From: Promethearchaeota archaeon
GTDB lineage: Archaea; Asgardarchaeota; Lokiarchaeia; Sigyniarchaeales; SOKP01
NCBI GenBank assembly: GCA_030599585.1
Contig: JAUVNS010000010.1
Span: 128,001-192,000 of the forward strand
Reading direction: 5' to 3'
DNA: 64,000 nucleotides
Made by a program: the position numbers and the translations under genes. Shown here piece after piece: positions 2,365 to 34,173 of this stretch. The first letter of the stretch is position 1; every line of letters starts with the position of its first letter. Below the pieces are notes generated by a model that saw only the letters and a list, made by a program, of their open reading frames with translations, did not search any database and had not been told where the DNA came from.

Positions 2365-3327
2365 TCACAATAGATTTGAAATGCAACTCGTAAATAGCTC
2401 ATCTACACCCTCACCAGTAAAAGCTGAAGTTTCGTAATATGAAAAGTTATTGCGATAAGATAAATCTAATGCACTACTCTGAATCGATTCTCTATCATTT
2501 ATTAAATCGATTTTATTCCCTACTAAGTAGTAATTAGTTTGGGGGGTTTTTATAAAATTTCTCGCCTCTTCAATCCATTCATTTATATTTTCAAGAGTAG
2601 TAAGTTTCGAGTAATCGAATAAAATAATCACAACTTTAGCATCTTGATAATAATGCTTTCGAACTTTTTTAAAACTCTTAAGACCACCCATATCAAATAT
2701 CTGGAAATCTATACTCATATTTTTAGTGATTTCAAAAGATCTTTTGTTAACTGAAAGCCCTATTGTAGGTATATAGTTATTTCCAGTTTTACCTTTAAGA
2801 TACATATCAACTAAAGATGTTTTTCCTACTGAATCTGATCCAATTATGACAATTTTGTTAGGCTTTGAAAATGAAGAGGAATGATCATCAAAAATAATAT
2901 TACCATTTCCATTAATTTTTGGAAGCTCAATTGATGTTTCTATATTATTCAAAATATTAGATGCCTTTTCAGCAACGAGGTAGGAATATGGAATGAAATC
3001 ATTCAAATTAGAATATGGATCTGTAACCATAACAAACAATCCCTGATTATTTATACCCATTTCAACATAAAACAATTGATATTCATTCATATGAATAGTT
3101 CCACTCCCTAAAGAGATCTCTGCGTATTTCTTCATTTTTTCCAGGTTTTCTTCCACAATACTAATAATGACCTCAAAAATTTCTTCTTTGAATCCTTTAT
3201 TTGATTGTTGAGCCATTATCAGGCCATTTGAATCAACAATAAGAACTGCTATAAGATCCTTTATTTCTTTAACCAAATTATTTAGCAATTCGTTTAGTAA
3301 ATTCGTTTTTGACACAATTACAGACAT
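2365..3327 (-). CDS. Roadblock/LAMTOR-like domain fused to Rab/Ras-like small GTPase
   Basis: N-term LNELLNNLVKEIKDLIAVLIVDSNGLIMA (roadblock-like). G1 GSDSVGKTS, G2 PTIG, G3 DMGG, G4 NKID, G5 TSA. Confidence 0.88.
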   Translation of the reverse strand: MSVIVSKTNLLNELLNNLVKEIKDLIAVLIVDSNGLIMAQQSNKGFKEEIFEVIISIVEENLEKMKKYAEISLGSGTIHMNEYQLFYVEMGINNQGLFVMVTDPYSNLNDFIPYSYLVAEKASNILNNIETSIELPKINGNGNIIFDDHSSSFSKPNKIVIIGSDSVGKTSLVDMYLKGKTGNNYIPTIGLSVNKRSFEITKNMSIDFQIFDMGGLKSFKKVRKHYYQDAKVVIILFDYSKLTTLENINEWIEEARNFIKTPQTNYYLVGNKIDLINDRESIQSSALDLSYRNNFSYYETSAFTGEGVDELFTSCISNLL

Positions 3328-3365: not shown

Positions 3366-4019
3366 TTAATTAACAGCTATTTCTAATTTTTCAAAAAATT
3401 TATCAAGAGTCTCAACTGAGGGAATAAAACAAAAGGTTCCGTAGAAATCTAAATCTTCAATAATCAACTTTGTTTTAATCAGTAACATAAAATCTAAATT
3501 TTCTGAACACATTGCTAAAAACTCATTAATTATTGCTCCTAATTTATCGAAAGCTAAGATGGGAACATCTGGAATATATTTAGTAGATAACAAGTTAGCA
3601 AGTGCACTAGTATAATGCCCTGCTAAAATATTACCAATTTCTACAATTAAACTGATAGTATATTCATCAAAATCATCTAAATTTGTTATCTCAACTCTCT
3701 TCTGTTTATTTTGTTCTGATAAAATGTCTATTAAATTGAAGATACTTTTTTTTGTGAAAATTTGTAAAATATTAAGATTAGTTTCCGCTTTAACGATTGA
3801 ATTTATTCCAAATACATCTGTATTAGAGCCCCCCAATTTATCACTTAATTTCCAAATGGGAATAATCTCGGCCGAAGTTAGAGAAACTTCTATTCTTTTG
3901 TCTAATAATTGCGATAAAGCGGTTATTGCATTACCGGATCCAATATTCCCAATCTCCATTAGAGTATCAATTTGGTATTGAGTCAATCGAAAATTTTCTT
4001 CTTCAGAATATCTTAACAT
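3366..4019 (-). CDS. cheC: CheY-P phosphatase CheC
   Basis: Two E-x-x-N sites (EIGNIGSGNA, EIGNILAGHY); che operon context. Confidence 0.9.
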   Translation of the reverse strand: MLRYSEEENFRLTQYQIDTLMEIGNIGSGNAITALSQLLDKRIEVSLTSAEIIPIWKLSDKLGGSNTDVFGINSIVKAETNLNILQIFTKKSIFNLIDILSEQNKQKRVEITNLDDFDEYTISLIVEIGNILAGHYTSALANLLSTKYIPDVPILAFDKLGAIINEFLAMCSENLDFMLLIKTKLIIEDLDFYGTFCFIPSVETLDKFFEKLEIAVN

Positions 4020-4118: not shown

Positions 4119-4724
4119 TTATAATAATTTTCTATAATATTCCTCGCCTGTTGGTTTCACATAAACGCTATTATCTTTTGTATCATAAATGATAATTCTA
4201 CCTCTTTTACCGCCGATATCTTTTCTAATAATCCTAATCTTAAGTCGTTCTAATTCAGATTTAACTACTTTTATGTTTTCTGCACCAATATCATTAAAAT
4301 GGTTTTGAAAAATTTTTGATCCCCCAACCATAACAGCTTTTATATTTTGACTTTCAGCTCCCTGATTAATCATATTTTTTACTAGATCCTTTACAGAACA
4401 GTCAGCAAATTTATGTGGACGTTTTATTTTTATATTATCCTTTATGTGATCTGAATGAGGGAGTAATATGTGAGACATTGCATAAATTTTATTTTGTAAA
4501 TCATAAAGAATTAACGCTATGCATGAACCTAACCCATATATTATTATTTTCGTTTGACTTATATACAATTTTGAATCAGAATTAATCAAAACATAATGAG
4601 CTATATGTAAAACTATCTCTCCTTTTCTATCTCCTTCAGTGATACAATCATTACGGTTTATGGAAGCAATTCCAATATTATTACTAAAAGATATCAGTTC
4701 ATTAGACATAGCTTTAATTTCCAT
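4119..4724 (-). CDS. cheD: Chemoreceptor glutamine deamidase CheD
   Basis: GLGSC catalytic Cys, SHILLP His, KFAD, VGGSKIF, DIGG.RGR. Exact start uncertain (overlaps cheB stop). Confidence 0.92.
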   Translation of the reverse strand: MEIKAMSNELISFSNNIGIASINRNDCITEGDRKGEIVLHIAHYVLINSDSKLYISQTKIIIYGLGSCIALILYDLQNKIYAMSHILLPHSDHIKDNIKIKRPHKFADCSVKDLVKNMINQGAESQNIKAVMVGGSKIFQNHFNDIGAENIKVVKSELERLKIRIIRKDIGGKRGRIIIYDTKDNSVYVKPTGEEYYRKLL

Positions 4725-5859
4725 ATTTTTTATCGAATTTTAATATGTAATTTTTAATCATACTATTTGGAGTTATAATTTGTGCTGCCCCACTTTCAGC
4801 AGCTACTTTTGGCATACCGTACACGATGCTCGTTTCTTTCGACTCTGCTATGGTCAAACCACCTTTTGATTTAATAGCTTTTAATCCTGCAACCCCATCA
4901 TTTCCTATACCTGTTAAAATGATACCTAATGCACGTTTTTTGAAAACTCGAGCTGCTGAAAAGAACAAAGGATCTGCCGAAGGTATACAATAATTTATTG
5001 GTTGTCCATCAAATGTTCTTATATAGGGTTTATTATTTTTAACTACAATTTCCGTGTGTTTTCCCCCTGGAGCGAGATAAACAATTCCGGAATTAATTTT
5101 TTCTCCATTTTTAGCTAATGTTACATCCAAATCAGTGTAATCATTTAAGGATTCAGCTAATTGTACCATAAATTGTTCATTCAAATGTTGGACAATTAAA
5201 ATCGGACTGTTTATTCCTTTTGGAATTTGGCTCAAAATTAATCTTAAAGTTTTAGGACCTCCAACACTAGTAGCAATAACAATAATATTAAATTTAAATT
5301 TGTCAATATCGACTTTATTTACTTTTTCCATACCAACTTTATCAAATGGTGGAATTTTTGGTTTTTGAACATAAGCTTTAATTTTTTCAGATTTTTGCTG
5401 ATTCTGATTCTTAAGTGAGGCATCGGGAAAATCCTTAATTGCTTTAGATTTATCTATCTTCTTGGATTTAGAAGCAAGTAGTACTTTTGAAATTAGTTCT
5501 TCTTTAAATTTTGGAAGTTCCACCTTCCAGACACCTCCTGGTTTAATAATATAATCAAAAGCTCCTAAGAGTAGTGCTTGAACAGATGCATCTAAAGTAA
5601 TTGGGTCTAATACTGAAAAGACAATTGTAGGTATGGGATAAATTTTCATGATTTGCTTAAAAGCTGCTAATCCATCCATCCTAGGCATTAAAATGTCAAG
5701 AAGTAGTACATCAGGCTTGAATTCTATCACTTTTTCAACTGCTTCTATACCATCTCGTGCTACATATACCACTTCAATCTCTTCATGCTCTGACAGCATT
5801 TCTGAGATGATTTTCCTCTGAAATGATGAATCATCTGCTATTAATACTTTTACAGTCAT
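4714..5859 (-). CDS. cheB: Chemotaxis response-regulator methylesterase CheB
   Basis: REC (ADDS, LLDILMPRMDG) plus methylesterase triad motifs TSVGGP, VQH and LTGIGNDG; VYGMP. Confidence 0.95.
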   Translation of the reverse strand: MTVKVLIADDSSFQRKIISEMLSEHEEIEVVYVARDGIEAVEKVIEFKPDVLLLDILMPRMDGLAAFKQIMKIYPIPTIVFSVLDPITLDASVQALLLGAFDYIIKPGGVWKVELPKFKEELISKVLLASKSKKIDKSKAIKDFPDASLKNQNQQKSEKIKAYVQKPKIPPFDKVGMEKVNKVDIDKFKFNIIVIATSVGGPKTLRLILSQIPKGINSPILIVQHLNEQFMVQLAESLNDYTDLDVTLAKNGEKINSGIVYLAPGGKHTEIVVKNNKPYIRTFDGQPINYCIPSADPLFFSAARVFKKRALGIILTGIGNDGVAGLKAIKSKGGLTIAESKETSIVYGMPKVAAESGAAQIITPNSMIKNYILKFDKKYGN

Positions 5860-5875
5860 AATCTAACAAAATTGG

Positions 5876-6919
5876 TTATCTAATCTTTAAATATATATGA
5901 TTTCGGGCATCTACTAATTTGAAATTACTGTAATTATTAAAAAGGGTCTCAGTTTTACCCAAAATTAGTAACCCCCCTAATTCTAAATGTCTATCGATTA
6001 TTTTAAGGAAACTATCACGATTTTCTCTATTAAAATATATTAAAAGATAACGACATAATATGATATCATATTTCCATCTATTCTGATGCCCTTTTGTTAT
6101 ATCTTCACAGAAAAAATCTACTTTTCTTTTAATGTCCTCAGTTAAAATATATTTATTTCCAAAATATTCATTTTCCTTACTAAAATATCTTTTTTCGAAG
6201 TACTTTGAAGTCTCTTTAACTGAATCATCATTATATACGGCTTTGTGTGCTTTATCAATTGCCAACTTATCTATATCAGAAGCAACAATTTTGTATTGAG
6301 GGAATGATTTAATTTGTTTTTCAAGATTATTCAGAATCATAGCTATCGTATAAGGCTCTTCACCAGTAGCACATGGACAGGACCATATTTTAATTGATTT
6401 ATTATTTAATTTAGGATTGTTTATTTTTTTATAGAGTGATGTCTCTTTTACGTAATATTTATTTTGTACAAGGTAACGATTTGAGTTTAACCTTTTGCTT
6501 GAAATTCCTTTAATTGAAGACTTGTTAACTTTTTCCTTATTTTTTTGTTCATTTTTGTTCTTTTTTTTTATTTTTGATGGATCGGGTTTAAAATCATAAA
6601 ATAAAGTATTATTTCTAGAATTAAAACACTCAATAAATATATTATTTAATCGTTCAAACAAATCCCAGTTTCTAAAGAAGTAAGTATAATTTATACTAAA
6701 TCGATTAAAAAAAATTTCTAATTCTTTCGGATTAGAATTTATATAACTGTAATACTCTTCTATTGATTTGCATTTTACGCGTATCATTCTAGCTTTTATC
6801 CTCCTTTCAATAAAATTTCTTCTGTAATAGTCGAAATTTAATTTTGTCTCTTGATGTAATAAGCTAATTAACTTCTTATAGGGATTTTCCTTTATTTTTA
6901 TTTGATCAAATGTTAGTAT
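5876..6919 (-). CDS. cheR: Chemotaxis methyltransferase CheR (probable ATA start at 6919, upstream of track ATG 6787)
   Basis: TYFFR, IWSCPCATGEEPYT, ASDID, YDIILCR. Frame stays open 5' of 6787, encoding KKLISLLHQETKLNFDYYRRNFIERRIKAR (CheR N-domain), and GGTGAT precedes the ATA. Confidence 0.9.
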   Translation of the reverse strand: MLTFDQIKIKENPYKKLISLLHQETKLNFDYYRRNFIERRIKARMIRVKCKSIEEYYSYINSNPKELEIFFNRFSINYTYFFRNWDLFERLNNIFIECFNSRNNTLFYDFKPDPSKIKKKNKNEQKNKEKVNKSSIKGISSKRLNSNRYLVQNKYYVKETSLYKKINNPKLNNKSIKIWSCPCATGEEPYTIAMILNNLEKQIKSFPQYKIVASDIDKLAIDKAHKAVYNDDSVKETSKYFEKRYFSKENEYFGNKYILTEDIKRKVDFFCEDITKGHQNRWKYDIILCRYLLIYFNRENRDSFLKIIDRHLELGGLLILGKTETLFNNYSNFKLVDARNHIYLKIR

Positions 6920-6930
6920 TTTCGATCACC

Positions 6931-7467
6931 TTAACTTTCGAGTATTTTATCAATCCTAACAATTCTTCTTTCAATATGTTCGAATGAATATTTTATATGT
7001 AATTGAATCTCTCTTATTTCTGATATTATCTTCTTAATTTGAGATTTCTCAGATTTTGATAACCTAAATTCTGCTTGATTGTTATAAATTTTATTTAATG
7101 GAGTTCTATCCTTCAAGATCTGCTCCTTAACCATACTCTTTCTTGATTGCCCTGGATAATCTAAATCTTGATTCCTATCGTTAATTTCTTCTAAAATAGT
7201 TTTGAAGTCTTCAGGCTCATGATTTTGTTTAATTACTTCATATTTAAATTTATAAAAATCTTTCTTACTCTTTAATTTTCCCGCCCAGTTTGCCGCAATA
7301 TATCGATGGAATAAGCGAGAATTACGACCGGCCCATATCCAGATAAGGTTTAAGTTTTTATCTATAACTAAATAAACACCATCATCCCCAAAAAGTTGAT
7401 CAGGTGCTTTTGTCAAAGTCTCTCCAATAACTTGATAAGTGGAATCATAATAACTGGATTTTACCAT
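6931..7467 (-). CDS. Single gelsolin-homology domain + C-terminal coiled coil
   Basis: DGVYLVID...IWIWAGRNS...YIAANWAGKL...EVIKQNHEPEDF matches the gelsolin repeat pattern. C-term amphipathic helix. Strong SD GGAGGT. Confidence 0.8.
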   Translation of the reverse strand: MVKSSYYDSTYQVIGETLTKAPDQLFGDDGVYLVIDKNLNLIWIWAGRNSRLFHRYIAANWAGKLKSKKDFYKFKYEVIKQNHEPEDFKTILEEINDRNQDLDYPGQSRKSMVKEQILKDRTPLNKIYNNQAEFRLSKSEKSQIKKIISEIREIQLHIKYSFEHIERRIVRIDKILES

Positions 7468-7598: not shown

Positions 7599-9524
7599 TT
7601 AAGCATAAAACTCTAATAAAGCATCCAATAACTCTTGTAATGTGTCGATATTTGGAATATATAAGAATGTCCCAGTTACTTTGAAATCTGTTATAATAAC
7701 ATTCGTAGTAATTACTAAAGAGAGTTTCTTAAGCAATCCAATTTCATCTCTTAAAATACTGAACAGCTGTTTCCCTGTATCAAGGTGTATATCAGGGGGG
7801 TCTGTCATTAACCGTATTCCTAATAAGTCACCAATTGCGCTAATATAATTACTTCCGAGAATATGACCTAATTCACTCATAGCACTGCGATAAAGCTCAG
7901 GAAAGTCATCAACTGTCTTAAATTTCTTTCGTAAGTCAATTTGTGTTTTCTTTTTATCATCAACGATAATTGATGTTAAATCTATCATATCTTTAACGCT
8001 AAAAATTGTAAGAACCGTTGCTTTAGTTTTTCCTGTGACGTTACTCCAAGCGACTAAGAGTTTATCAGTTGCTCGACTTAGTGTATCAGCATACTTATCT
8101 AATTCAACCATTTCTACCGAAGGTATATTAATAACTACTCTTTGATTTACCATTTGAGCTAGAGCATTAGCGGCATTCCCTGCTCCAATATTTCCTATTT
8201 CTTGTAATGCATCTCTCTGAAGCTCTGTTAATTTGATTGATTCCAAATTAAGCGATAAATCAGTTGTTGCTTCATCATTCGGTGCCTTAAATGTGACTCC
8301 TAATTTTCTGAACATCCCTTCCAGAGTTCCTTTGTCAGGTATAAAGAAAAACACTCCTGTTAGCTTAAAATCACTTATTTTTATCGTGGTTTTAATTAAT
8401 ACTACATATTTCGATATCGATTGCAATTCTTTACCTAAAAATTCTCCTAATAATCCAGAATCACTCATAGCAAATTCCGGAATGTCTATCATCATTTTAG
8501 TACCCGTTAAATCAGCTAGTGCAGATACATAATGACCAGCCATAATGTTTCCCATCTCAGTTATAGTAGATATAGCAAACGAATCAAGGTCCTCTTTGGA
8601 ATTGATTTTTTCAGGATCAAATTTAGAGTCATCACCAGTTAAATTAGCAACTAATTTCAATAGCGGCTTCATTTCAAAGATGTTAAGAATCGTTGATTGA
8701 GAAGGTTTATTGACATGGCAAAATATTCCACAAACCTTTTCACTAGATCCTTGAAACTGTTCTGATAATTTATCGCTGGAAATAATCCCTACATCTGTAA
8801 GTTGAACATCGATTTTTTTCTTTATTAAAACAGATAAAGCGGTCACAGCATTACCTACACCAATATTTCCAATTTCTTGTAAAGTATCAAGTTGATATTC
8901 ACTTAGTTCGTACTCCTTTTTCGGAGTTGGGCTTTTAGCTTTTTTATGGAGAACAACATTTTGAGATTTCGATTTTTTCTCCTTTATTTTCTTCGGGAGT
9001 ATTCCAGGTTGAGAAAGCGCTTTTGGAATCTTCTCTTGTTTTTTAAGCTGTTTAATTTTCAAGTTAGATAAATACCATTCGATAAGTGAATCTAAATCTA
9101 ATAAGATTAATGGTTGATCATTTAGCGTTCCAATCAATTTTACTAGATCCAGGTCTAAGTTTGTTTTTACAATTGTACTGTTTTGTCTAAAATTTCCTAA
9201 AGAAAATTTCTTAACACCATGGACATCATCCACTAATAAACCTAAATTTAAACCTTTATACTCTAATAGAAGTATTCTAGAATTTTCGGATAAATTATAT
9301 TCCGTTTTATTTCCATATATTATATGCCTTAGAGATAATACTGTATACACTGTACCCCTAATATCAATTATTCCTAATACTGATTCTTCAGCTAAAGGTA
9401 TTGGAATAATTTCATTATTTGGAACATAAATTTCTTTAACATTTTCTACTTCAAGTAAATATTGTTCATTTTGAACCTCTATTACTACTGAAGTGATACT
9501 ATTCATATTTTCAGCTTCCATCAT
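7599..9524 (-). CDS. CheW-CheC-CheC fusion protein
   Basis: N-term CheW (IPIPLAEESVLGIIDIRG, GLLVDDVHGV), Lys-rich linker, two CheC domains (EIGNIG/EMGNIM; EIGNIG/ELGHIL). Confidence 0.9.
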   Translation of the reverse strand: MMEAENMNSITSVVIEVQNEQYLLEVENVKEIYVPNNEIIPIPLAEESVLGIIDIRGTVYTVLSLRHIIYGNKTEYNLSENSRILLLEYKGLNLGLLVDDVHGVKKFSLGNFRQNSTIVKTNLDLDLVKLIGTLNDQPLILLDLDSLIEWYLSNLKIKQLKKQEKIPKALSQPGILPKKIKEKKSKSQNVVLHKKAKSPTPKKEYELSEYQLDTLQEIGNIGVGNAVTALSVLIKKKIDVQLTDVGIISSDKLSEQFQGSSEKVCGIFCHVNKPSQSTILNIFEMKPLLKLVANLTGDDSKFDPEKINSKEDLDSFAISTITEMGNIMAGHYVSALADLTGTKMMIDIPEFAMSDSGLLGEFLGKELQSISKYVVLIKTTIKISDFKLTGVFFFIPDKGTLEGMFRKLGVTFKAPNDEATTDLSLNLESIKLTELQRDALQEIGNIGAGNAANALAQMVNQRVVINIPSVEMVELDKYADTLSRATDKLLVAWSNVTGKTKATVLTIFSVKDMIDLTSIIVDDKKKTQIDLRKKFKTVDDFPELYRSAMSELGHILGSNYISAIGDLLGIRLMTDPPDIHLDTGKQLFSILRDEIGLLKKLSLVITTNVIITDFKVTGTFLYIPNIDTLQELLDALLEFYA

Positions 9525-9544: not shown

Positions 9545-10390
9545 TTATTTATTTTCTTTTAACATAATTCCTTTCCAAATAAGCTCAACTTCTTGTTCTT
9601 CGCCACTTATTTCCGAGAGGTAATTTTGCTGGACAAATATTGAAATTTGACCTCCATCCGAGTACTCATAAACGTAATCAAGTACATCATCTATAGATGT
9701 AAAATTAAAACCAGCAATTTTCAGCTCTGAACTACCAACTAACAATAAATCCTCACCATTAAAAGGACGGTCTTCATCATTCCATTCAACCCAAATTTCA
9801 GAAGCAATTTCAAGATCGTTTATAACTAAATCCTTTTCCAGGGGGATATTACGATAAGTCTTATAAGCAGCAAAAATAATTCGATTTGGAACTTTTCCCG
9901 TCTTTTTAAAGTATTTTTTTATAGCTTGTACCCCAGAATTAAAATTATTTAAATCAAGAATATCATAACAGACGACATAGGTCAATTCACCATCTTCCAT
10001 CTCTATAACGAAGTCCAAATTATCATTAGATTCATTGGAAATATTAACCTGGAAATTCTCAATTATAAATCCTTGAACATATTTAAAATATTGATAAAAT
10101 CGCCATTTTACCCCAAAATTTGAATTATCTTCTCTGCTGATAAAAATCTGATATAAAGATTTTAGTTGAGATGCTTTTAGGCTTTTTAAGTCATCAATCG
10201 TGTCATAGTCGTCACCAATATTTTTTAAGTTCATTCTTGCTGATTGTTTCTTTTTAGTAGGTTTACTTGAAAGTTCATCCAAAAAGATTTTAAGTTCTCC
10301 TTTTGTAAATGACGGTTTAATTTGGCTTACCAAATAATTTAAATATTTATCCGATTTATCTTGTAAAGTTTCATAATATTGAAAATTCAT
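9545..10390 (-). CDS. Hypothetical protein in che operon (possible degenerate PD-(D/E)XK-like fold)
   Basis: 281-aa ORF, SD AGGAG, tight spacing to neighbours. LDFVIE..DGELTYVVC only loosely resembles a restriction-endonuclease-like core. Confidence 0.6.
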   Translation of the reverse strand: MNFQYYETLQDKSDKYLNYLVSQIKPSFTKGELKIFLDELSSKPTKKKQSARMNLKNIGDDYDTIDDLKSLKASQLKSLYQIFISREDNSNFGVKWRFYQYFKYVQGFIIENFQVNISNESNDNLDFVIEMEDGELTYVVCYDILDLNNFNSGVQAIKKYFKKTGKVPNRIIFAAYKTYRNIPLEKDLVINDLEIASEIWVEWNDEDRPFNGEDLLLVGSSELKIAGFNFTSIDDVLDYVYEYSDGGQISIFVQQNYLSEISGEEQEVELIWKGIMLKENK

Positions 10391-10427
10391 TTAATCTCCT
10401 CTTTTTTTATTTATTTTTTTTTTGTTA

Positions 10428-12464
10428 TTATCCATAAAAGTAGGATTCTAATTCCGTAAAATTTACATCCTTTCCATCAATAGTCTTCAAATAATACATT
10501 ATTTCCATTTCCTGATAAGGCGTTATATTTGGAATAGTGAAATTTATCGTTTGATCGTGATTATCACTAGATTTAGTCATTTTATGTTCTATGTTTGATG
10601 ATATAAGCTTAAAGGATTCTGGAATTGTATCTGATATATCAATGTCTTTAATGAAGGCATTTGATTTGTTTTTGATTATAATATTTATTGCAAATTCATC
10701 ACTACTTCTACCTGGAAATATTTCTTTTCCAATCATGACGTTTCGGCGTTTATGTGAAATGTTTAAGGAAGGAATCGCATCTCTATCCAAATTTTCTTTT
10801 ATAACATGATATTCTTTAATCCCTTCATTAGCACTTTCCTGGTATTTAGGAAAATATGCATTAATTTCTAATGGAAAATCATATGATTTCTCGTTATCCG
10901 GTGAAATTGCCCTTAACGGATATTGAATCTCTAAAGTATCATTTTTTTCCAATGAATATTTAAGATTATTTTGAGATAGATTAACTTCAAGCTCTAATAC
11001 ATGCGTCATAGAAGGATCATCATTGTTGGGGGTTATATTTACAGTATATGAATCGGGGGTAATTGTTCCAGAATTATTAGTCAAAGTATAACTTGTATTA
11101 TCCATGGGAAGTAGAAAATCTTCAGGTACTACTTCTTTTACTACAACAGCATGCATAGGAATTGAACTGTTGTTTTTAATAAAGATTTTATTGGTAATCA
11201 CTGATTTTTCGAAAGATTTAATCTCGGTTTCTGGAATAAGTTTTTCTATTTTAAAATCAACTACTTCATAAACTTCATCAGCAAAATAGGTTTTTATTGT
11301 TGAATTTTTCTTAAAATTATAATTTACTGAATATTCGATTTTTCTAAAGAAGGATGGTTCAATTTCATCCTCTGTTTCCCATTCGTCTGTCTGATAGTTT
11401 TCGCCAGAATTTATTAGCGTTTTATTATTTGAAGTTTTAAAGTCTAAGTTTAAATATTCTTCTGTTTTGGATTTATCTGTAATTAGAATTGTTCTTAAAT
11501 CTAATGAATAATCACTGTGATTTTCAAAAATTAAGGAACATTTCCAATGATTGGGTCTGTTATTAACTTCTGATTTGTTAATTGCATGAAAGGCATGAGA
11601 GAAAGCCGTAAATTTATTGACATTAACCTCTGAAAATACATTATCTTTAACTTTAAATGAAGTTTCTATAATTCCCGTTCTAATTTTTTGATTTTTTTTA
11701 GGCATTACTTTAATCGAAAATTGTATAATTGCGTTTTCTCCTGGATGTAATTTATTCACTGAGCATTCAATAGAATTTCTTCCTATAACTAAGTTCTTAG
11801 ATGTTTGATCAGATACTTGAAAATCGTAAAAATCCTTGAAAATAGCTTTTCTAAATTCAATCTCTTCTATAATTGATGTACTAATATTTCTAATTACAAT
11901 AGTATACCTTATTAGATTCTCTCTACCTGATAATAGAATATTAGTTCTCTTTAAATGTAAGGTTTTTATGTCCTCCTCAGAGTTTTCAAATTCAGTTTTA
12001 ATCGATTCTAATTTATCATTCAATATCTCAATTTCTTCATCAATACGTATCAAATCTGAGATCTCCTCAGTATTAATAAGATCAAATTTAATATTTTTAC
12101 TAGTTTTAGGTTCAAAAATTCCTAGAACAACTTCATTCTCCTCTCCTATACTCGTTTGTTTAGAACCAGAAAATTCTAAGCGCGTATCCCAGATTCGATC
12201 CTTATTAGAGTTGTTGTTAACTGATAAATTGCCATATCCATGGAGAGATTTTCGAGATCTGTTGTAGTTATATTGAAAATCTAGCACCTCTTCATTTACA
12301 ATTGAAATTTCAGAAACTTTTTTGACAGACTCCGTATATATCTCTTGGGTGCTTCTATCGTCATATAGATCTCTTGAATGGGCTGTTTGAGATAAAGATA
12401 ATCCGATTAAATTAAATCCGGACTTAGTTTTCAATTCATCGTGTTTAATTTTTTTAAATCCCAT
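10428..12464 (-). CDS. Cytoplasmic protein with tandem Ig-like beta-sandwich repeats
   Basis: Repeated units such as YTIVIRNIS..IEEIEF, IFIKNNS..MHAVVVKEVVPEDF and IIIKNKS..IKDIDISDTIPESF (DUF11/CARDB-like). No signal peptide or TM helix. Confidence 0.65.
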   Translation of the reverse strand: MGFKKIKHDELKTKSGFNLIGLSLSQTAHSRDLYDDRSTQEIYTESVKKVSEISIVNEEVLDFQYNYNRSRKSLHGYGNLSVNNNSNKDRIWDTRLEFSGSKQTSIGEENEVVLGIFEPKTSKNIKFDLINTEEISDLIRIDEEIEILNDKLESIKTEFENSEEDIKTLHLKRTNILLSGRENLIRYTIVIRNISTSIIEEIEFRKAIFKDFYDFQVSDQTSKNLVIGRNSIECSVNKLHPGENAIIQFSIKVMPKKNQKIRTGIIETSFKVKDNVFSEVNVNKFTAFSHAFHAINKSEVNNRPNHWKCSLIFENHSDYSLDLRTILITDKSKTEEYLNLDFKTSNNKTLINSGENYQTDEWETEDEIEPSFFRKIEYSVNYNFKKNSTIKTYFADEVYEVVDFKIEKLIPETEIKSFEKSVITNKIFIKNNSSIPMHAVVVKEVVPEDFLLPMDNTSYTLTNNSGTITPDSYTVNITPNNDDPSMTHVLELEVNLSQNNLKYSLEKNDTLEIQYPLRAISPDNEKSYDFPLEINAYFPKYQESANEGIKEYHVIKENLDRDAIPSLNISHKRRNVMIGKEIFPGRSSDEFAINIIIKNKSNAFIKDIDISDTIPESFKLISSNIEHKMTKSSDNHDQTINFTIPNITPYQEMEIMYYLKTIDGKDVNFTELESYFYG

Positions 12465-14668: not shown

Positions 14669-15046
14669 TTATTTTCCAGCAACTCTCTCTAAAACATCTT
14701 CGATTTGGTCTGCTTTAAAGGGTTTCTGAATAAAATCCTTTGCGCCCTTTTTAGCAGCTTCTAAAACTAACGCCTCTTGACCCAAGGCAGACACAATAAC
14801 AATAATTGCATCGGGATCGAAACTTAAAATTTTCTCTGTAGTTTCTATACCTCCTTGTTCAGGCATAACTAAATCCATTGTTACTAAGTCAGGCTTGAGC
14901 TCTTGATACAAAGAAACTGCTTCAACACCGTTTCTAGCTTCTGCGATAACTTCACCAATTTCTGTTTTATTGATGATCTTCTTCAACATATTTCGTGTAA
15001 ATTGGGCGTCGTCAACTACCAAAATTTTCTTTTTATTTTTTGTCAT
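14669..15046 (-). CDS. cheY: Chemotaxis response regulator CheY
   Basis: VVDDAQFTR, TMDLVMP, VSALGQ, FIQKPF; lies between cheW and cheA. Confidence 0.95.
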   Translation of the reverse strand: MTKNKKKILVVDDAQFTRNMLKKIINKTEIGEVIAEARNGVEAVSLYQELKPDLVTMDLVMPEQGGIETTEKILSFDPDAIIVIVSALGQEALVLEAAKKGAKDFIQKPFKADQIEDVLERVAGK

Positions 15047-15595
15047 TTAATCAACTCTTTTTTTTTGCATTTTTATTTCTTCTTTTTTAATTGAAATATA
15101 GTCAATTTCATTAAGCAAATTGCTTAAATCAAGTAAAATTCTAGGTCTATCCTTGAATTTTATTATACCTTTAATATTTTCCATACCCACACTTGTTTGG
15201 AATATTGGACTCAATCCCACAATATTTTCTGCATTGACATGAGCAATACTAACAATTTGATCAGCAAAAAACCCGATAAAAACTCCAGCTATATCCAAAA
15301 TAATAATATATTTCTTTTTCCTCTTAGTTTTTACTTTAGATAAAGCGAGTTTTGATTTATATAAATAATTCTCGTGTAAATTTAGAACTTTTTCAAGGTT
15401 TAATATGTGAATTATTTCTCCTCGATAATTGTAGATGCCATCGATGAAATCAAGGCTCTTCGGTAGTTTTCTAATTTGACCCGATCTTACAATTTCTTTT
15501 ATTGTGGAAAGTTCAATTGCAAATTCTTCTAAACCAATTTCAAAAATTATAACCGATTTTTTTTCTAATTCATTTTTTATTTGTTCTTGATACAT
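15047..15595 (-). CDS. cheW: Chemotaxis coupling protein CheW
   Basis: IFEIGLEEFAI..IKEI, LPKSLDFIDGIYNYRGEII, GFFADQI, RILLDL. Confidence 0.92.
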   Translation of the reverse strand: MYQEQIKNELEKKSVIIFEIGLEEFAIELSTIKEIVRSGQIRKLPKSLDFIDGIYNYRGEIIHILNLEKVLNLHENYLYKSKLALSKVKTKRKKKYIIILDIAGVFIGFFADQIVSIAHVNAENIVGLSPIFQTSVGMENIKGIIKFKDRPRILLDLSNLLNEIDYISIKKEEIKMQKKRVD

Positions 15596-15615: not shown

Positions 15616-16464
15616 TTAAATTTCAAAATACAAATCAATTTTTTTTTTAAATTTATGGAAAGGTGCTATATCTCCGGTAAAATCAATTAGATGCTCCTTG
15701 TACTGTTCAAGGAAATCATCAGCTATTAGATACATGTATCTTTTGATTAATGAATTCAGGTTTTCAACCAAAAAAGCAAAAATAACATTCTTTTTTGTTA
15801 TCATATAAAAACGTTGATTACCGAAGTTAATTTCTTTCAGTTCTGCCCCGGATTCTTGTCCGATGATTTCTTTTGAAAATGAAAATAGCGCAGATATAAA
15901 CCCTCCAATGTGAACTTCCTTATTTGATATAAGTTTTCTGTTTTGATTGATTTTTGAAATATAAGGGCATCCATTTGCCCCTATTATGAACACACCAATA
16001 ATTCCCTTTGTTTGGGGTATTGATATTGTCTTGTTACACGTATTAATTACTTCAGAAATAGGTGTATTTAACCGTATTTGGTTTGTTATTTTTCTTGTAA
16101 AAAAATATAATTTTGGAAAATTAATAGTATGATCTTTCTCTGTCATATAGAGAATTACAATAGTATTATTATTATGTTGGAAATAATGAATAAAAATTGA
16201 AAAATCATCTAAAGGAATTATCGAATTCCCCTGCTTTTGATTATTAATTTCTTTCTTGCACAGTTCAATTACATTTTGTATAAGTGGTGTTCCTATTCCT
16301 TTTTGAAATAATACGTGAATTTTATCATTGTTATTAAATTCAGAAATTTTTATTAACCCATATCCGAGCATCTGCAAAATTTCTTTTGATTCTATTGTAT
16401 CCAAATGATTATTCATTTGAATTTTTCTATTTTGATGTTTTTCCATAACAATCATTAAATTCAC
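15616..16464 (-). CDS. Longin-like domain protein (first gene of che run)
   Basis: C-half GIIGVFIIGANG.PY...GGFISALFSFSKEI...LKEINFGNQRFY...IADDFLEQY...FTGDIAPF is typical of Asgard longin/sedlin-like domains. Start uncertain. Confidence 0.7.
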   Translation of the reverse strand: MNLMIVMEKHQNRKIQMNNHLDTIESKEILQMLGYGLIKISEFNNNDKIHVLFQKGIGTPLIQNVIELCKKEINNQKQGNSIIPLDDFSIFIHYFQHNNNTIVILYMTEKDHTINFPKLYFFTRKITNQIRLNTPISEVINTCNKTISIPQTKGIIGVFIIGANGCPYISKINQNRKLISNKEVHIGGFISALFSFSKEIIGQESGAELKEINFGNQRFYMITKKNVIFAFLVENLNSLIKRYMYLIADDFLEQYKEHLIDFTGDIAPFHKFKKKIDLYFEI

Positions 16465-18595: not shown

Positions 18596-20524
18596 TTGGC
18601 ATTATTAACATTACTACAAGCAGATATAGATGAAGTTATTAAGCAGTTACAAGTACTAACAGGCTTAAAATTTGATAATTATTTATATAATTTTATTGAA
18701 AAAAGAATAATTTATCGCATTCAAAACTTAAAATTAAATTCCCACGTGGAATATTTAAAATATCTTAAGTCGAATCCGAAAGAAATTGAGGAATTTCTTG
18801 AACGATTTACCATTAATCACACTTATTTTTTCAGAGATTTAGATGTTTTCAAAGCATTAGAAAATTATTTTAAGAATTATAAAACAAAATCGAAAATACG
18901 CGTATGGTCTGCCGCTTGTGCAACGGGAGATGAAGCCTATTCAGTTGCATTGATTTTAGATAAATTAAGCAAACGCGTTAAAAATTTTTCTGATTTTAAA
19001 GTAATAGCGTCTGATATTGATAAAAGGGCAATTGGAGTTGCCAAAAAAGGAAAATATTCTGAATTTTCTTTACATACCACTCCTGATGAATACATTCAAG
19101 AATACTTCAAACGAAAGGAAACACCTTACAGTCCAGAGTTTAAATTGGATGAAGTCTTAATGAAGAAGGTTGAATTCATCGAAGAGGATATAACTATAGG
19201 ACATAAAAAGAAGATAAAATATGACATCGTTTTATGTAGAAATTTCATGATTTATCTTAATAAAAAAGCGCGTAATGAACTCTTAAGGATCATCGAATCC
19301 AAAATGATTAATGGGGGTTTGTTGATTTTAGGGTTAAGCGAATCTTTATTAGGTGTAAAAAGTAGCTTTAAGCCAATTGATATTAAGCATCGTTTCTTTA
19401 TTAAAAGAAGTTCCAATTTCATTGAATCTAATAAGAAACAAATTGAAGAATTAATAAAAAAGACCAAGATACAAAAGCCAATTTTCATAGAGAATAATCT
19501 AACTAATTTTGATGAGCTTGAATTAAAAAATAATATTAATGAAACAACTCTAAAAATAGAAGAAGAAAAATTAAACAAACAGATTAAATACAAATCGATT
19601 GAAGATCAACGAAAGACCATTGAAAAAAGAGCACATGGATTAATTAAAAGAGAACTGATTATACAAGAACAAGAAAAGATTTTATTAAAGAATCTTTCAT
19701 ATTTAAAAAAAAGAGAGAAGGATATATTAAAAAAATCGAAATATATGGAAAAATTAATTCTATTTATTAAAGAACAAGAAAAGGAATTAAATCTCTTCAT
19801 TAGGAATATGGAGTTCTTTTCCAATCAATTAGAAGAAAAGGAAAATCACTTGAATTATAAAGAGAAGCAAATAAATCATCAATTCAATCAAATTGGTTAT
19901 TATACAAATCAATTATTACAAAAAGAAAAAACACTTCCAAAAAAAGAACATAAACATATAGGTGACTATTCACTTGAGGTTGTGGATGAGAAACGAATTG
20001 ATCACATAATTAATCCTAATAAAGATCTAGAATTAACTATTCCAGTGGGATATTATGGAGTTTTGAACTTGCATATTCAAAATGAAACTGCTACTAAGTT
20101 CGGCGTTAATTCTTTAGGAGCAGGAATAGCCTTGATATTAAAGGACGATTCTAATAAAATATATGCATTTTCTCATTCAAGATTTCCCAATTCTTCAGCT
20201 TCAAAGCAAGGATATCATCTCGTTTCTCCTCATTCTTTTATAAATACTTCTGTAATAAGTTTGTTAAATACAATGCTTTATCATGGTGCTGAAAAGAATG
20301 AAATTAAAGCAATTGTTATAGGAGGCGCACGATTGTTTAATGATTTTGATTTAACATTTCAAGAGAATATTGATTCTATCAAAAGAGAATTAAAGAAAAA
20401 TAGTATTTTAACTGAAATCGAAGATTTGGGAGGCTTAAGTGAAAAAGCAGTAAAGTACGATGTAATAAATAATTCTCTTTATGTAAAAAGAGCTTGGGAA
20501 TTTGAATTTAGGAAAATTAATTAA
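18596..20524 (+). CDS. CheR methyltransferase - coiled coil - CheD-like fusion
   Basis: N-term CheR (TYFFRD, VWSAACATGDEAYS, CRNFMIY), central E/K-rich heptads, C-term CheD-like (SLGAGIAL, SHSRFP, IGGARLF, EDLGG). Confidence 0.88.
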   Translation: MALLTLLQADIDEVIKQLQVLTGLKFDNYLYNFIEKRIIYRIQNLKLNSHVEYLKYLKSNPKEIEEFLERFTINHTYFFRDLDVFKALENYFKNYKTKSKIRVWSAACATGDEAYSVALILDKLSKRVKNFSDFKVIASDIDKRAIGVAKKGKYSEFSLHTTPDEYIQEYFKRKETPYSPEFKLDEVLMKKVEFIEEDITIGHKKKIKYDIVLCRNFMIYLNKKARNELLRIIESKMINGGLLILGLSESLLGVKSSFKPIDIKHRFFIKRSSNFIESNKKQIEELIKKTKIQKPIFIENNLTNFDELELKNNINETTLKIEEEKLNKQIKYKSIEDQRKTIEKRAHGLIKRELIIQEQEKILLKNLSYLKKREKDILKKSKYMEKLILFIKEQEKELNLFIRNMEFFSNQLEEKENHLNYKEKQINHQFNQIGYYTNQLLQKEKTLPKKEHKHIGDYSLEVVDEKRIDHIINPNKDLELTIPVGYYGVLNLHIQNETATKFGVNSLGAGIALILKDDSNKIYAFSHSRFPNSSASKQGYHLVSPHSFINTSVISLLNTMLYHGAEKNEIKAIVIGGARLFNDFDLTFQENIDSIKRELKKNSILTEIEDLGGLSEKAVKYDVINNSLYVKRAWEFEFRKIN

Positions 20525-21227: not shown

Positions 21228-22823
21228 TTATCGTTTTAATTTAGATTTTAATGAAAGTTTCTTCTTTTCTTTTTGTTCCTTGATTGGTTTTGACTCAGTT
21301 CCTTCTGAACCATCAGATTTGTATTGAGTTAAATTACTTTTTAAATCTTCTGCTAGAACACCTAATTTATCAGCTGTAGCAGCGATTTCTTCCATGGATG
21401 CTGTCTGTTCTTCTGCGGATGCGCTAATGCCTTCAATAGATCCCGTAGTAGATTCAAGTCTTTTAAGAATATCATTGATTTTTGAACCCGTAGTTCTAAC
21501 AGAGTTTCTTGATTCTTCAGCAAGTTTTCTTACTTCATCAGCTACAACTGCAAATCCTCTACCATGTTCTCCAGCACGACCAGCTTCTATACTTGCGTTT
21601 AACGCTAGTAAGTTTGTTTGTTCAGAAATAGATACTATTATCTCCATAACTCTTTTAATCTCGGTCGAAGATAGCATTATAGTTTGACTATCATTTGCAA
21701 CTTCTTGTGTTGTTGAGGCGATTTCTTCTGATGCAGCGTTAACTTCACTTGCACTAGCAGCTAATTCTGTAGCTATATTTGCTACAATAATACTTGCTTC
21801 AGATCCTGCTTTTAGCACATTTTCCATATTGGAGGTAACTCTTGCAATACTTTTGGTAGTAGGTATCGCTATTATTAATCCAAGTACAACAACAGCTCCT
21901 AATGCTACGAAAGTGATAACATAGGCTATAAATACACCTAGTTGAGCACTAGCAATTTCTTCGTCTATTTCGGCTTCTGTTTCATGATGTATTTCAGTTA
22001 AGTCTGCGGATAAATGTTCATAATCTAATTCAACATCTTCTAATTTTGCATCAATGTGATCTTTCATGTCAAAGACTCCATCCGCTCCTACAACCATTTC
22101 AGTAAAAGCATGATGGACAGTTTCAATCTCCGCGATCTTATCTGTAATTGTTGCGTTTCCAGCATAAAAAGTTTCAATAACTCCTATTACATTATCGAAA
22201 GTAACAACTGAAGTATTAAATTCTAAATCAGTATCTTCATGGATTCCTTCTAAGTACTCAAACGTTAAATATATCTGTTCGTTAACATAACTTCTCATCA
22301 AAGTTGCATTTAATTTCATCTGAACATCACTAATTAATGCAATCAACTCGTCAATTAAAATATCTATTTGCTCTCGCATATCAATACTCGAATTTAAAGC
22401 TGCGCTTATTTCTTGGATATGAACGATAATTCCATGCTCGTCGCTAGTAATATCATCGATAATGCAATCAAAATCTGTCCCAATATCAACAAGTTCATCA
22501 CCATGCTCTGGATGCAATGTTCTTAATAAATCTAAAGATGAATTAAAAATTTCAGCATGCTCCAAAATATGGTCTATGATACTTTCCTCTTCGGCATGAT
22601 GCGATTCTCCTCCGTTATAGAGGGTTTCAAAAGTTTCTCGAATAATCAACTCCGATTCATATTGCATTGTATCTACGGCTTCCATAATAACAAAATCCTT
22701 TTGGGTAAACTCTGTAAGATACCCATCCAAAGAATTTATTTGAATGGTGCCAACGATTCCGATTGCAAAAGAAAAAGCAATAAGAACGGCAAATCCAATA
22801 GTCATTCTTCTTTTAATATTCAT
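21228..22823 (-). CDS. Methyl-accepting chemotaxis protein (2 TM, helical extracellular sensor, short signalling domain)
   Basis: Tip [38 protein letters not shown]; methylation-type motifs ASEEIAS and [12 protein letters not shown]; two hydrophobic helices. Confidence 0.96.
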
Positions 22824-28598: not shown

Positions 28599-29495
28599 CT
28601 ATAAATTTCTAATATATTCCACCAAATAACTGGATAAAGCGTTTTCTACGTTTTTTATCCCTCTAAATCCAGGAAAATCGTTTAAATCGATTAGATAAAA
28701 ACGATCCTTATCTATTAGTTTTATTAAATCAAATCCAAAAATTTTAAGGTTAAGTTCTTTTGATAAGATTTCAGCGAGTTCTCTAATTTCTTCAGATATT
28801 TTAAATTCCTTCCTTTTAATCGTGTCAACATTGATATTATTTGGCTTATCTCTTAAAAAGATATAAATCGGATTTTCTCTTATAATACCAAAAGCTTTAT
28901 CTCCTATTACATAAACCTTCCTTTCAAATCCATCACATTCAATAAATTTCTGAATATAAATGTCGTAATATAAAAGGTGTTTATACCGATTGCAAAAGGT
29001 ATCTACTTCTTCAATCTTTCTAACTAAGAAGTTAAATCTATTATATTTGTCGTGCTGGTAATGACTTTTAATTACAATTGGAAGTTTATGTAAAGCCCAT
29101 TTTTTAAACTTTGAGAGATCTGTAGCATTATTATTCCAAGAGTTAGGAATTGAAAACTTTTTACTAATTTGAGGATGGTCTTTAAATACCCTTCTTAGAG
29201 CGTAATCAAGCGATATCTTATTTTTGCACATTAGAACGGTATCGACACTATGTAGTGTTGGAATTTTATTTGTTTTAGCGTAATGAAGTAAATCAATGGA
29301 ACAATCGTTTCTTACTTTGACTATAATTAAATCTGCTTCTTTAATCGCTTTAGGCATTCTAGAAAGGTTAAAAAACTTTTTTGTAGGATCGTGAAAGTGT
29401 AAGTTAACATCGGGTAACTTTTTAAGCTTATTTATAACACCCTTAACTATTTCGTGATCTTCCCTTGCTGAAAAAACGACATTTCTTATCATCAA
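28599..29495 (-). CDS. ATP-grasp protein, ITPK1-like inositol phosphate kinase candidate
   Basis: YIQKFI, RKVYVIG, IFGFDLI, YLIDLNDFPGF (cf. ITPK1 IDINxFPG); near ino1. Confidence 0.75.
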   Translation of the reverse strand: MMIRNVVFSAREDHEIVKGVINKLKKLPDVNLHFHDPTKKFFNLSRMPKAIKEADLIIVKVRNDCSIDLLHYAKTNKIPTLHSVDTVLMCKNKISLDYALRRVFKDHPQISKKFSIPNSWNNNATDLSKFKKWALHKLPIVIKSHYQHDKYNRFNFLVRKIEEVDTFCNRYKHLLYYDIYIQKFIECDGFERKVYVIGDKAFGIIRENPIYIFLRDKPNNINVDTIKRKEFKISEEIRELAEILSKELNLKIFGFDLIKLIDKDRFYLIDLNDFPGFRGIKNVENALSSYLVEYIRNL

Positions 29496-29608
29496 TTAAA
29501 AATAAAGAAGCGCAGAAAATTCTTAAATTTTCCCTCAATGATTACTTTCTTTTTGTATTGTATATTTTAGAAAAATAATAATTTCTTTGAAAAAATGGAG
29601 ATATTAAT

Positions 29609-30880
29609 TTGAAAGAAAAAGTGTTTAGTAAATTTCTCAGAAGACAAGTGTTATTAATTGGTCTGCTCTACATGGGAGATTACCTTTTCTTCTTTTTTGA
29701 GCAGAATTATTTCAATACTTACTTAGATCATGTCCTCTTTTTACCAAAAATATTCATATCAATTATGGTTTCTTTATCAGCTGCAATGGGTCTCATAATA
29801 ATGCTAGTTTGGGGGATTTTAAGCGATAATACTAGGACTAAATTTGGTCGAAGACGACCTTATTTATTATTAGGAGGAATCATAGCTGGTCTAGCTATGA
29901 TGTTTTACGGATTGTCAGGGAATTATTTTATATGTCTAATTATCGATGTGGTAATTATCGGACTCGCTTCAAATGCATTTTTAGTTGCTGAACGATCTCT
30001 TATCCCAGATACATTTGAAGTTGAGAAAAGGGGACGAGCAAATGGTATTATAAACTCAATTAGTTATATAGGCTTATTAATCGGTGTAGCATTCTTTCTA
30101 CTTGTAAATGAATTATATGGAATTCCAGATCCTCGTCCAGATCCAATAGGTACAATTTTAACTCAACAAGGCCACTTTATCTTATTATCTGTTGGAGGAA
30201 TTGTATTTGCTTCAGTTGGAATCATAGGCTTCTTATTCATAAAAGAGGAACCAGTGTCAGAACTTCCGGAGAAAAAAAAGTTTTATGTTGAATTAAAGCA
30301 AATTTTTAATCTAGCAGAATTGAAATCCCATAAAGAATTCTATAAAATTCTTCTAGCATTGGTCATATTCCAATCAGGGATTTCTTCGATAATGCCGTTT
30401 TTATTTATTTTCATCTTCAATCAAGGGCTCACAACTCTGCAACTCTTATTAGGGATCGCTATCGCATTACCAGGTGTATTAGTTGCAACCATTTATTTAG
30501 GAAGATTGTCGGATAAATTTGGAAGAAAAAGATTCGTACCAATATCTATGATTATAGTAAGCATAGGATATCTTATAATGCCATTTGCTTCAGGCAATTA
30601 CATTCTATTTATAATTGGATTGCCATTTGTGTTAGTAGGTGTATTATCATTAGTAACACCCCTAAATGCGTGGTCTCAAGATTTGTTACCAGTTGATAAA
30701 CGGGGAAAATTTACAGGAATACTAAATATTGTTAACACCTTATCTCAAATTATAGGTTCCTTCGCAGGTGGCATAGTTGCTGAATTATTTGGCCTTCCTT
30801 GGATATTCATACTCGGTCCTGTCTTTTTTCTAGCCTCGATTCCACTATTTTTGAAAGTAAAAGAAACTGTAAATTTATAA
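29609..30880 (+). CDS. MFS transporter (GPH/sugar-like)
   Basis: About 12 TM helices; GILSDNTRTKFGRRRPY and GRLSDKFGRK motifs. Confidence 0.9.
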   Translation: MKEKVFSKFLRRQVLLIGLLYMGDYLFFFFEQNYFNTYLDHVLFLPKIFISIMVSLSAAMGLIIMLVWGILSDNTRTKFGRRRPYLLLGGIIAGLAMMFYGLSGNYFICLIIDVVIIGLASNAFLVAERSLIPDTFEVEKRGRANGIINSISYIGLLIGVAFFLLVNELYGIPDPRPDPIGTILTQQGHFILLSVGGIVFASVGIIGFLFIKEEPVSELPEKKKFYVELKQIFNLAELKSHKEFYKILLALVIFQSGISSIMPFLFIFIFNQGLTTLQLLLGIAIALPGVLVATIYLGRLSDKFGRKRFVPISMIIVSIGYLIMPFASGNYILFIIGLPFVLVGVLSLVTPLNAWSQDLLPVDKRGKFTGILNIVNTLSQIIGSFAGGIVAELFGLPWIFILGPVFFLASIPLFLKVKETVNL

Positions 30881-31101
30881 ATAAAATTTGACTCTTTTTT
30901 CTTATTTCTTTTTTTTACTTCTTTTAGGAGTTTATGATGATTTTCATCTACAAATATCTCCAATCAAATAATTTCAATAGTGTCAAAAATATCATAAATC
31001 TAATAAATAGAAACCATCTCTATAGTTTATTTCAAGATGATTTAAATAATACTTTTTAATATAGATACTATAACGGCGACCACTATAAATTTAGAAAAAA
31101 G

Positions 31102-32205: not shown

Positions 32206-32237
32206 TAAGATACTCGAAACTTGATACTTTTGGAAAT

Positions 32238-33149: not shown

Positions 33150-33340
33150 TTAAAAAACCCTTTCAATTTGATTTCTAAAAAACAAATTAAAATATATAAA
33201 TGTATTGATAAATAAGTCCGAGTAATATTTCTATTTAGTTTATTATTTTTTCGTTATTATATATACTTTAAAATAATTTAGTTTTATAATATTCATAAAG
33301 GAAAGATTTTTTCATCGACGCGTTTAGTTGGGGTGGTGAT

Positions 33341-34159: not shown

Positions 34160-34173
34160 GAAGAAGTGCAATT

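Follow-up and report, generated by a model that had tools for sequence, protein, structure and literature searches.

A che-linked subfamily of roadblock–Rab-like GTPases lacking the switch II glutamine in Promethearchaeota

A chemosensory (che) gene cluster in a 64,000-nucleotide stretch of a Promethearchaeota genome (the whole stretch is hereafter the window) closes with a gene for a small GTPase that carries a leucine at the position of Ras Gln61, which raises the question of what such a protein might do beside the Che proteins. Che genes are present in many Asgard archaea (PMC9834061), and few of the dozens of Asgard small GTPases have any functional context; the subfamily described here gains a pathway and candidate partners. 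Judged from sequence and gene-order comparisons, it is a distinct Asgard subfamily of roadblock–Rab-like GTPases that joined one Promethearchaeota che cluster type.

The GTPase fusion and the che cluster

The protein at the end of the cluster is composed of the following parts:

2365–3327, minus strand: fusion of a roadblock domain to a Rab-like small GTPase, a 320-residue open reading frame that closes the che cluster in this genome
2950–3309, minus strand: roadblock/LC7 domain with a C-terminal helix, residues ~7–126
2368–2865, minus strand: Rab-like G domain, residues ~155–320, from Pfam and structure matches

That this gene encodes a roadblock–Rab-like GTPase within a che cluster, as proposed in a preliminary description of the window, is borne out by the reading frame, Pfam, an AlphaFold2 model and gene order. 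The Pfam Robl_LC7 model matches 30 of 37 orthologues (best E 1.7e-6), with no Robl_LC7 match for the window protein when it is searched alone. In the AlphaFold2 model of the 320-residue fusion (pLDDT 84), residues 7–126 form a helix, two strands, a helix, three strands and a helix, which is the roadblock element order, and the roadblock chains 7f8f and 9jue are weak PDB profile matches (E 0.02–0.07). The fusion matches Pfam Ras with an E of 1.5e-34 (119 bits for Ras versus 66 for Arf). The best PDB matches of the G domain are Rabs, and Pfam, Foldseek and VIA-align agree on a Rab-like assignment, the wide structure search having covered the G domain only; structure comparison gives a Z of 25.6 with Rab versus 17.3 with MglA (5ymx), and the orthologue profile recovers Thor-Rab (7ezb) with an E of 1.5e-33. 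The protein ends in ...SCISNLL and, as previously pointed out, has no CaaX motif; neither is there among the orthologues a conserved terminal cysteine of the kind that is geranylgeranylated in eukaryotic Rabs. Since a missing prenylation motif is general among Asgard Rab-like proteins (PMC10933270), this absence is generic and carries no information.

On the roadblock domain, residues 51–53 in helix 2 are F-E-V in the window protein versus a family consensus of I-G-A. In MglB, small residues of the corresponding helix point toward the GTPase, and the platform surface of the roadblock may thus have changed in the lineage of the window protein.

The cluster and the one receptor gene comprise, besides the GTPase gene:

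3366–4019, minus strand: CheC-like phosphatase (Pfam CheC E 5e-17), 38 nt upstream of the GTPase gene
4119–4724, minus strand: CheD, sharing 37% identity with the CheD domain in a CheR-CheD fusion
4714–5859, minus strand: CheB (PF01339 E 7.8e-54)
5876–6787, minus strand: CheR (Pfam E 3.2e-40)
6931–7467, minus strand: single gelsolin domain with a C-terminal long helix, 178 residues, a 1DGelX-like architecture
7599–9524, minus strand: fusion of CheW with three CheC domains (Pfam)
9545–10390, minus strand: conserved orphan of 281 residues, no Pfam or NCBIfam match, conserved in 21 loci
10428–12464, minus strand: conserved cluster gene containing DUF11 (Pfam), 678 residues
12528–14624, minus strand: CheA, encoded once in the genome, its assignment resting on sequence and neighbouring genes
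14669–15046, minus strand: CheY, a che cluster member
15047–15595, minus strand: CheW, a che cluster member
15616–16464, minus strand: longin/roadblock-like protein that opens the conserved cluster, assigned from gene order and longin/roadblock neighbours
21228–22823, minus strand: the one methyl-accepting chemoreceptor that the genome was found to encode (PF00015)

The conserved order across relatives is longin-like, cheW, cheY, cheA, the DUF11 gene, the orphan, cheW-cheC, gelsolin-domain, cheR, cheB, cheD, cheC and GTPase, usually followed by a second cheB. Orthologues were sought in the contigs by profile search, in which the single-protein query gave nothing and the orthologue-alignment query worked; those that bear names trace to Promethearchaeota (Lokiarchaeia) and to MAGs of related Asgard archaea. 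A short form of the GTPase, as distinct from the longer copies described below, occurs in 34 of the 161 genomes of the class, and 33 of these 34 share the same CheA type, the 34th being represented by a 2.4-kb contig fragment on which cheC adjoins the GTPase gene. At each of the 32 short-form loci, che genes lie no more than 3 kb from the GTPase gene (in five the second cheB only), which is placed after cheC, the gelsolin gene, cheR or cheB, or has moved together with the second cheB. Thus one outcome that had been named as fatal to the initial proposal, a leucine unique to this sequence with orthologues unlinked to che genes, is not what is found. The genomes compared are kin, so these linkage counts are not independent, and the gene-order pattern may reflect one ancient event. 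The reverse link is weaker: the same CheA type is present in 47 genomes, 14 of which have no short-form match.

Several further genes surround the cluster. The CheR-CheD fusion, whose CheD domain matches NCBIfam CheD models, joins CheR and CheD by a coiled coil; its gene (18596–20524) runs on the other strand and has the sole chemoreceptor, a TFB and a solitary response regulator close by. At 1570–2274, the usual position of the second cheB of relatives, lies a ribbon-helix-helix–HisKA–REC regulator, an architecture known for Lokiarchaeum (PMC5847659); this genome has one CheB only. Farther away, at 28599–34956, inspection by eye suggests four ATP-grasp-like genes that surround an inositol-phosphate-synthase-like gene together with an MFS transporter. 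A promoter and terminator scan stayed at chance level. The orphan and DUF11 genes (9545–12464) occur in both Loki che cluster types (L086, L091 and the present type), and are thus possibly the most ancient of its non-Che components, as well as candidates for the output.

Loss of the Gln61 equivalent

The motifs of the G domain that bear on catalysis are:

2680–2694, minus strand: G3 motif DMGGL, residues 212–216, with Leu216 (nt 2680–2682) at the Ras Gln61 position
2815–2841, minus strand: P-loop GSDSVGKTS, with Asp165 (nt 2833–2835) at the Ras Gly12 position
2758–2775, minus strand: switch I Y185-x-P-T188-I-G, with the Tyr32 and Thr35 equivalents and no conserved arginine finger
2659–2679, minus strand: clade-specific basic switch II K217-x-F-x-K221-x-R223, from the alignment

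The reverse complement gives DMGGL as residues 212–216, as previously read. A profile of 37 orthologues aligns with Rab39B and Rab26 without gaps across G3, D-x-G-G-L lying over D-T-A-G-Q, and Leu216 is therefore the Gln61 equivalent. The residue at this position is not glutamine in 46 of 47 close orthologues (32 Leu, 5 Ile, 4 Ser, 2 Phe, 2 Ala, 1 Val), so that the residue after DxxG is hydrophobic (L, I, F, A or V) in 42, serine in 4 and glutamine in one, P0046. None of 39 distinct genomic loci, a set that overlaps with the 47 orthologues, has glutamine here, and lysine, histidine and methionine are also seen. The orthologue alignment that the preliminary description had called for thus places the loss of glutamine, rather than leucine itself, as the conserved feature; its wording of a Q61L-type substitution holds for Leu216 and overstates the case for a site that also admits Ile, Ser, Phe, Ala, Val, Met, Lys and His. 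As the sequences stand, the trait is an old, subfamily-wide loss of glutamine with a preference for hydrophobic residues; with 46 of 47 orthologues sharing it, a one-sequence oddity, chance or a sequencing error is ruled out.

The remaining nucleotide-binding motifs, G1 GSDSVGKT (163–170), G2 PTIG (187–190), G4 NKID (271–274) and G5 ETSA (299–302), are all present, and the nucleotide- and Mg-binding residues K169, T188, D212, N271, K272, D274 and S301 are invariant in the clade. The earlier statement that these motifs are intact needs one correction: within G1, Ras positions 12 and 13 are Asp165 and Ser166. Position 12 is charged or large and polar in 45 of 53 clade members versus 8 of 76 control GTPases (sister and same-genome Rab- and MglA-like proteins, Arf-type GLD motifs excluded); it is acidic in 39 of the 53 (33 Glu, 6 Asp), the other residues being Ser, Lys, Gln, Thr, Asn and Pro. 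An aspartate or other bulky residue here, beside the loss of glutamine, makes slow hydrolysis more likely. The Tyr32 equivalent Y185 is kept in 51 of 52 members, position 187 is proline in 51 of 52, and the Thr35 equivalent T188 is invariant. In switch II, lysine or arginine occupies 217 (Ras position 62) in 51 of 52 and lysine 221 in 50 of 52, with R223 invariant, as against lysine in 3 of 23 and 2 of 23 sisters at 217 and 221. The interswitch tryptophan before DxxG is replaced by phenylalanine or leucine in 49 of 52 (FDMGGL in the window protein versus WDTAGQ in Rab).

In a tree the glutamine-less sequences form one group with an SH-aLRT support of 99, which becomes 100 once positions 11–13, 61 and 62 are removed, ruling out a grouping produced by the trait columns themselves; the second of these trees comes from a quick search with SH-aLRT support only and excludes nine long-branch or partial rows. 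Glutamine is retained in 22 of 23 sister fusions of roadblock and GTPase; this genome has five such sisters, one Gln-bearing example being G000:C32:44021-45037. Accordingly, glutamine was lost, position 12 became charged or bulky, switch II became basic and the interswitch tryptophan changed to phenylalanine or leucine on the branch leading to the subfamily. Seven longer Gln-less copies (430–490 residues, with a C-terminal extension) lie away from che genes, which indicates that the trait does not require the che setting. These longer-form loci are L045, L060, L027, L026, L028, L067 and L122, and some of their genomes have no CheA match.

In the genome of the window (4.85 Mb, 100% complete, 8.9% contaminated) an iterated profile finds 85 GTPase-like domains, with glutamine at position 61 in 64 and glutamate in 12; among its Rab-like proteins only the window protein has leucine there. 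A residue other than glutamine at position 61 is hence not rare in this genome, and a hydrophobic one is. A second GTPase of the window serves poorly as a comparator:

62735–63769, plus strand: longin-fused GTPase with WDFAGQ, of a different subfamily from the che-linked GTPase

Its glutamine was correctly reported before, and the weight then placed on the comparison is reduced by its longin fusion and different subfamily. Twelve single-domain Rab-like GTPases of the genome with Glu61 (WDFGGE, WDFAGE) group in one part of the tree and make up a second, more numerous set without glutamine, examples being C9:15852-16391, C21:65554-66093 and C26:3492-4046 of this genome (G000). With these twelve and the glutamine of P0046, sequence comparison indicates that position 61 is not strictly constrained among Asgard GTPases.

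These alignments bear on two accounts of how GTP might still be hydrolysed. The preliminary description likened the protein to a fused MglB-MglA module; on this view the GAP for the Q61L-type G domain would be the roadblock of the same chain. Roadblock and G domain do share one chain, and the chemosensory control of MglA/MglB by Frz is a functional precedent. However, MglB adds no catalytic residue, only repositioning MglA's own Gln82 and Arg53, and MglA Q82A and Q82L lose both intrinsic and MglB-stimulated hydrolysis (PMC3199381), so that the roadblock could not rescue a Gln-less G domain in the manner of MglB. In the clade the Arg53 equivalent is not conserved (position 186 is Lys in 32, Ile in 8, Arg in 6 and His in 3 of 52 sequences), the fold is Rab-like and not MglA-like, the MglA-like proteins of the genome (T-x-G-Q) form a separate branch, and the Gln-bearing sisters have the same roadblock fusion. 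We therefore set this mechanism aside as highly improbable.

The other account is a GTPase of the HAS type with normal turnover, its hydrophobic residue being retracted and water activated by other means, such as the position-12 acid with Lys217 or pairing of G domains in a roadblock dimer. FeoB and Era hydrolyse GTP without this glutamine, as do HAS-GTPases with a hydrophobic residue in its place in general (bioRxiv 10.1101/2020.08.16.253419), and the position-12 acid and the basic residue at 62 arose with the loss of glutamine. Nevertheless, the position-12 acid is not invariant, and the clade alignment has neither an invariant arginine finger or alternative base in either switch nor a conserved replacement catalytic residue of HAS type, the G3 aspartate being the one residue among Glu, Asp, His and Asn that is invariant in switch II; furthermore, the fold and all close structures belong to the Rab/Ras family, in which loss of glutamine usually slows hydrolysis. 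Normal turnover of this kind appears unlikely.

Neighbouring genes, missing motility machinery and a proposed role

The gelsolin-domain protein matches Thor ProGel 7c2f by profile (E 4.3e-7) and, as an AlphaFold2 model, by Foldseek, where 7c2f is the best match (E 9.2e-7); the 1DGelX architecture of Asgard gelsolin proteins has been described (PMC7444086). Its gene is steadier in the cluster than that of the GTPase, being retained in 5 of 6 clusters that have no GTPase gene. In 15 of 17 loci the longin-like gene immediately precedes cheW, and its product has longin and roadblock clusters as atlas neighbours, with scores of 0.81–0.82 that serve as a lead only. A second longin-like paralogue, G000:C40:80525-81322, is 34.5% identical to this first gene of the cluster.

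As a candidate partner whose gene opens the cluster, the longin-like protein invites consideration of a true cycling switch, in which intrinsic hydrolysis is slow and a partner (the longin-like protein, CheC or another) inserts a Gln, Asn or Arg in trans. TBC, RapGAP and TSC2 are precedents, TBC GAPs supplying Gln in trans and Rap/Rheb GAPs Asn (PMC5902227, PMC3199381). Residues N64, E72, K210, E211 and R242 of the longin-like protein are invariant, as are T188, D212 and R223 in the switches of the GTPase. Against this, by analogy with Ras G12/G13 mutants, the large residues at positions 12/13 (E/D/K/R/Q) would probably hinder an inserted finger, and the longin-like gene, being kept in GTPase-less clusters (G144, G106, G107), must serve a further function. 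When compared as profiles, the alignments of the GTPase and the longin-like protein gave no match; a predicted complex of the two proteins with GTP and Mg scored 0.20, below the 0.32 threshold, and counts neither for nor against their pairing. We regard a switch completed in trans as a tentative alternative that merits some weight.

Six related che clusters that were read have no GTPase gene (G160, G137, G106, G107, G144 and G060); on full rescoring, five of the six genomes, the 100%-complete G160 among them, gave no member of the clade at all, and G144 gave the long form only. Since several lineages retain the cluster and drop the GTPase gene, the GTPase is accessory rather than an obligatory output. 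Such clean loss, together with the copies outside che clusters, could also suggest a passenger, that is, a decaying or unrelated GTPase kept in the cluster by history and having no chemosensing role. Yet the nucleotide-binding and roadblock residues are invariant although orthologues share 38–55% identity overall, and the gene stays with che genes through rearrangements; a passenger is accordingly very hard to credit. In cluster composition, five GTPase-less clusters of the same family (L113, L114, L115, L117 and L118) have no cheR in the cluster and two no cheB; cheR is also absent from the GTPase-bearing clusters L030, L038, L040, L046 and L055.

No archaellin over the cut-off and no CheF were found in this 100%-complete genome or in 35 carriers, the controls being positive, and no FlaJ/PilC (T2SSF) platform was found in this genome. 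It has four weak T2SSE-family ATPase matches which, with no T2SSF platform, we do not count as an archaellum or pilus motor. Five of the GTPase-less clusters likewise lie in genomes without archaellin, and hence the GTPase cannot be the required output. A flagellar-looking block near L033, L037 and L052 proved to consist of A/V-ATPase subunits, and an archaellum link was rejected. A second, more distant che cluster type carries, in the stretches read, neither a GTPase of this kind nor a longin-like or gelsolin gene; one of its clusters belongs to G055, the single genome that has archaellins.

This genome encodes actin, and one speculative extension is that CheA/CheY controls the Gln-less GTPase (its nucleotide state, location or partners) and thereby steers actin protrusion or crawling via the gelsolin-domain protein. 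We consider this improbable; if true, a prokaryotic chemosensory input would be wired to an output of eukaryote-style small GTPase and actin. Crawling of Asgard archaea by means of actin-filled protrusions has been published in a report that does not mention chemosensing (PMC13716822).

Weighing these contextual and sequence features, and by analogy with characterized GTPase-deficient proteins, we propose with a probability of about one half that the subfamily comprises hydrolysis-poor, mostly GTP-loaded adaptors that are dimerised by their roadblock domains and work with Che, longin-like or gelsolin-domain partners. Such a protein would bind GTP, hydrolyse it poorly on its own, probably not be rescued by an MglB-type GAP, and sit mostly in the GTP-loaded state, like Rnd/RhoH or Rab25. 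Going by the behaviour of roadblock domains, it would dimerise through this domain, serve as an adaptor, and owe its regulation less to rapid cycling than to the partners it binds, its location or its expression. Gene order suggests that it works with the Che, longin-like and gelsolin-domain proteins in archaellum-less cells, perhaps as an accessory modulator of the sensing system. Several points count against this adaptor model, namely: 1) the HAS precedent; 2) the trans-GAP precedents; 3) Arf proteins, which have Asp at position 12 and are yet active; 4) the glutamine of P0046; 5) the twelve GTPases with glutamate; 6) the seven longer Gln-less copies outside the che setting; and 7) the kinship of the genomes, which may reduce the gene-order pattern to a single ancient event.

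Comparison with known systems

Loss of the glutamine alone is unsurprising, since G proteins without it are known from every domain of life; it is the che linkage that gives the subfamily its interest. The RB-GTPase architecture is already known, as are che genes in Lokiarchaeia and Heimdallarchaeia, reported in 27 of 97 MAGs (PMC9834061); what sequence analysis appears to add is the Gln-less, che-linked subfamily, no description of which turned up in a literature search covering few subscription papers. In MK-D1 (Prometheoarchaeum), 26 of 74 GTPases are fused to a roadblock or longin domain (Tran et al. 2024, PMC10933270). The window subfamily resembles these Asgard RB-GTPases and Thor-Rab in its roadblock–G-domain fusion, Rab-like core and C-terminus without prenylation, and differs from them in its Gln-less switch II, charged or bulky position 12 and location in a che cluster. 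The Gln-less member and its Gln-bearing sister fusions thus offer a natural comparison within one genome.

Rnd1–3, RhoH and RhoBTB (PMC6321241) and Rab25 (PMC10515638) likewise have position 61 replaced and the nucleotide-binding motifs kept. The GTPase-defective Rnd/RhoH proteins, which do not respond to GAPs, have substitutions at 12, 59 and 61 (PMC6321241), their replaced position 12 being a further likeness to the window subfamily, while Rab25, with a natural Gln-to-Leu change at position 61, is described as GTPase-deficient (PMC10515638). The deficiency of these proteins is measured, that of the window subfamily is proposed by analogy, and the latter has no lipid anchor. As they are not orthologous, any resemblance would be convergent: if the subfamily is hydrolysis-deficient, an 'always on' G protein like Rnd or Rab25 would have arisen independently in archaea. 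The HAS-GTPases FeoB, Era, EngA and MnmE share the hydrophobic residue in place of the Gln/His after DxxG; however, they are different families, to which matches of the window protein are far below cut-offs.

The MglA-MglB system of Myxococcus and Thermus, under Frz control, also ties a small GTPase and a roadblock protein to a chemosensory system, by pathway in Myxococcus, which moves without flagella, and by gene order only in the present case. MglA and MglB are separate proteins in a 1:2 complex, whereas the window protein is a 1:1 fusion with a Rab-like G domain; MglA needs Gln82 and Arg53, neither of which is conserved in the window subfamily. Finally, the cluster shares with the archaeal chemotaxis system (CheA/W/Y/B/R/C/D, CheF and archaellum) a full Che core with CheC and CheD, and unlike that CheF-archaellum system it includes, in the carriers, genes for longin-like, gelsolin-domain and roadblock-GTPase proteins.
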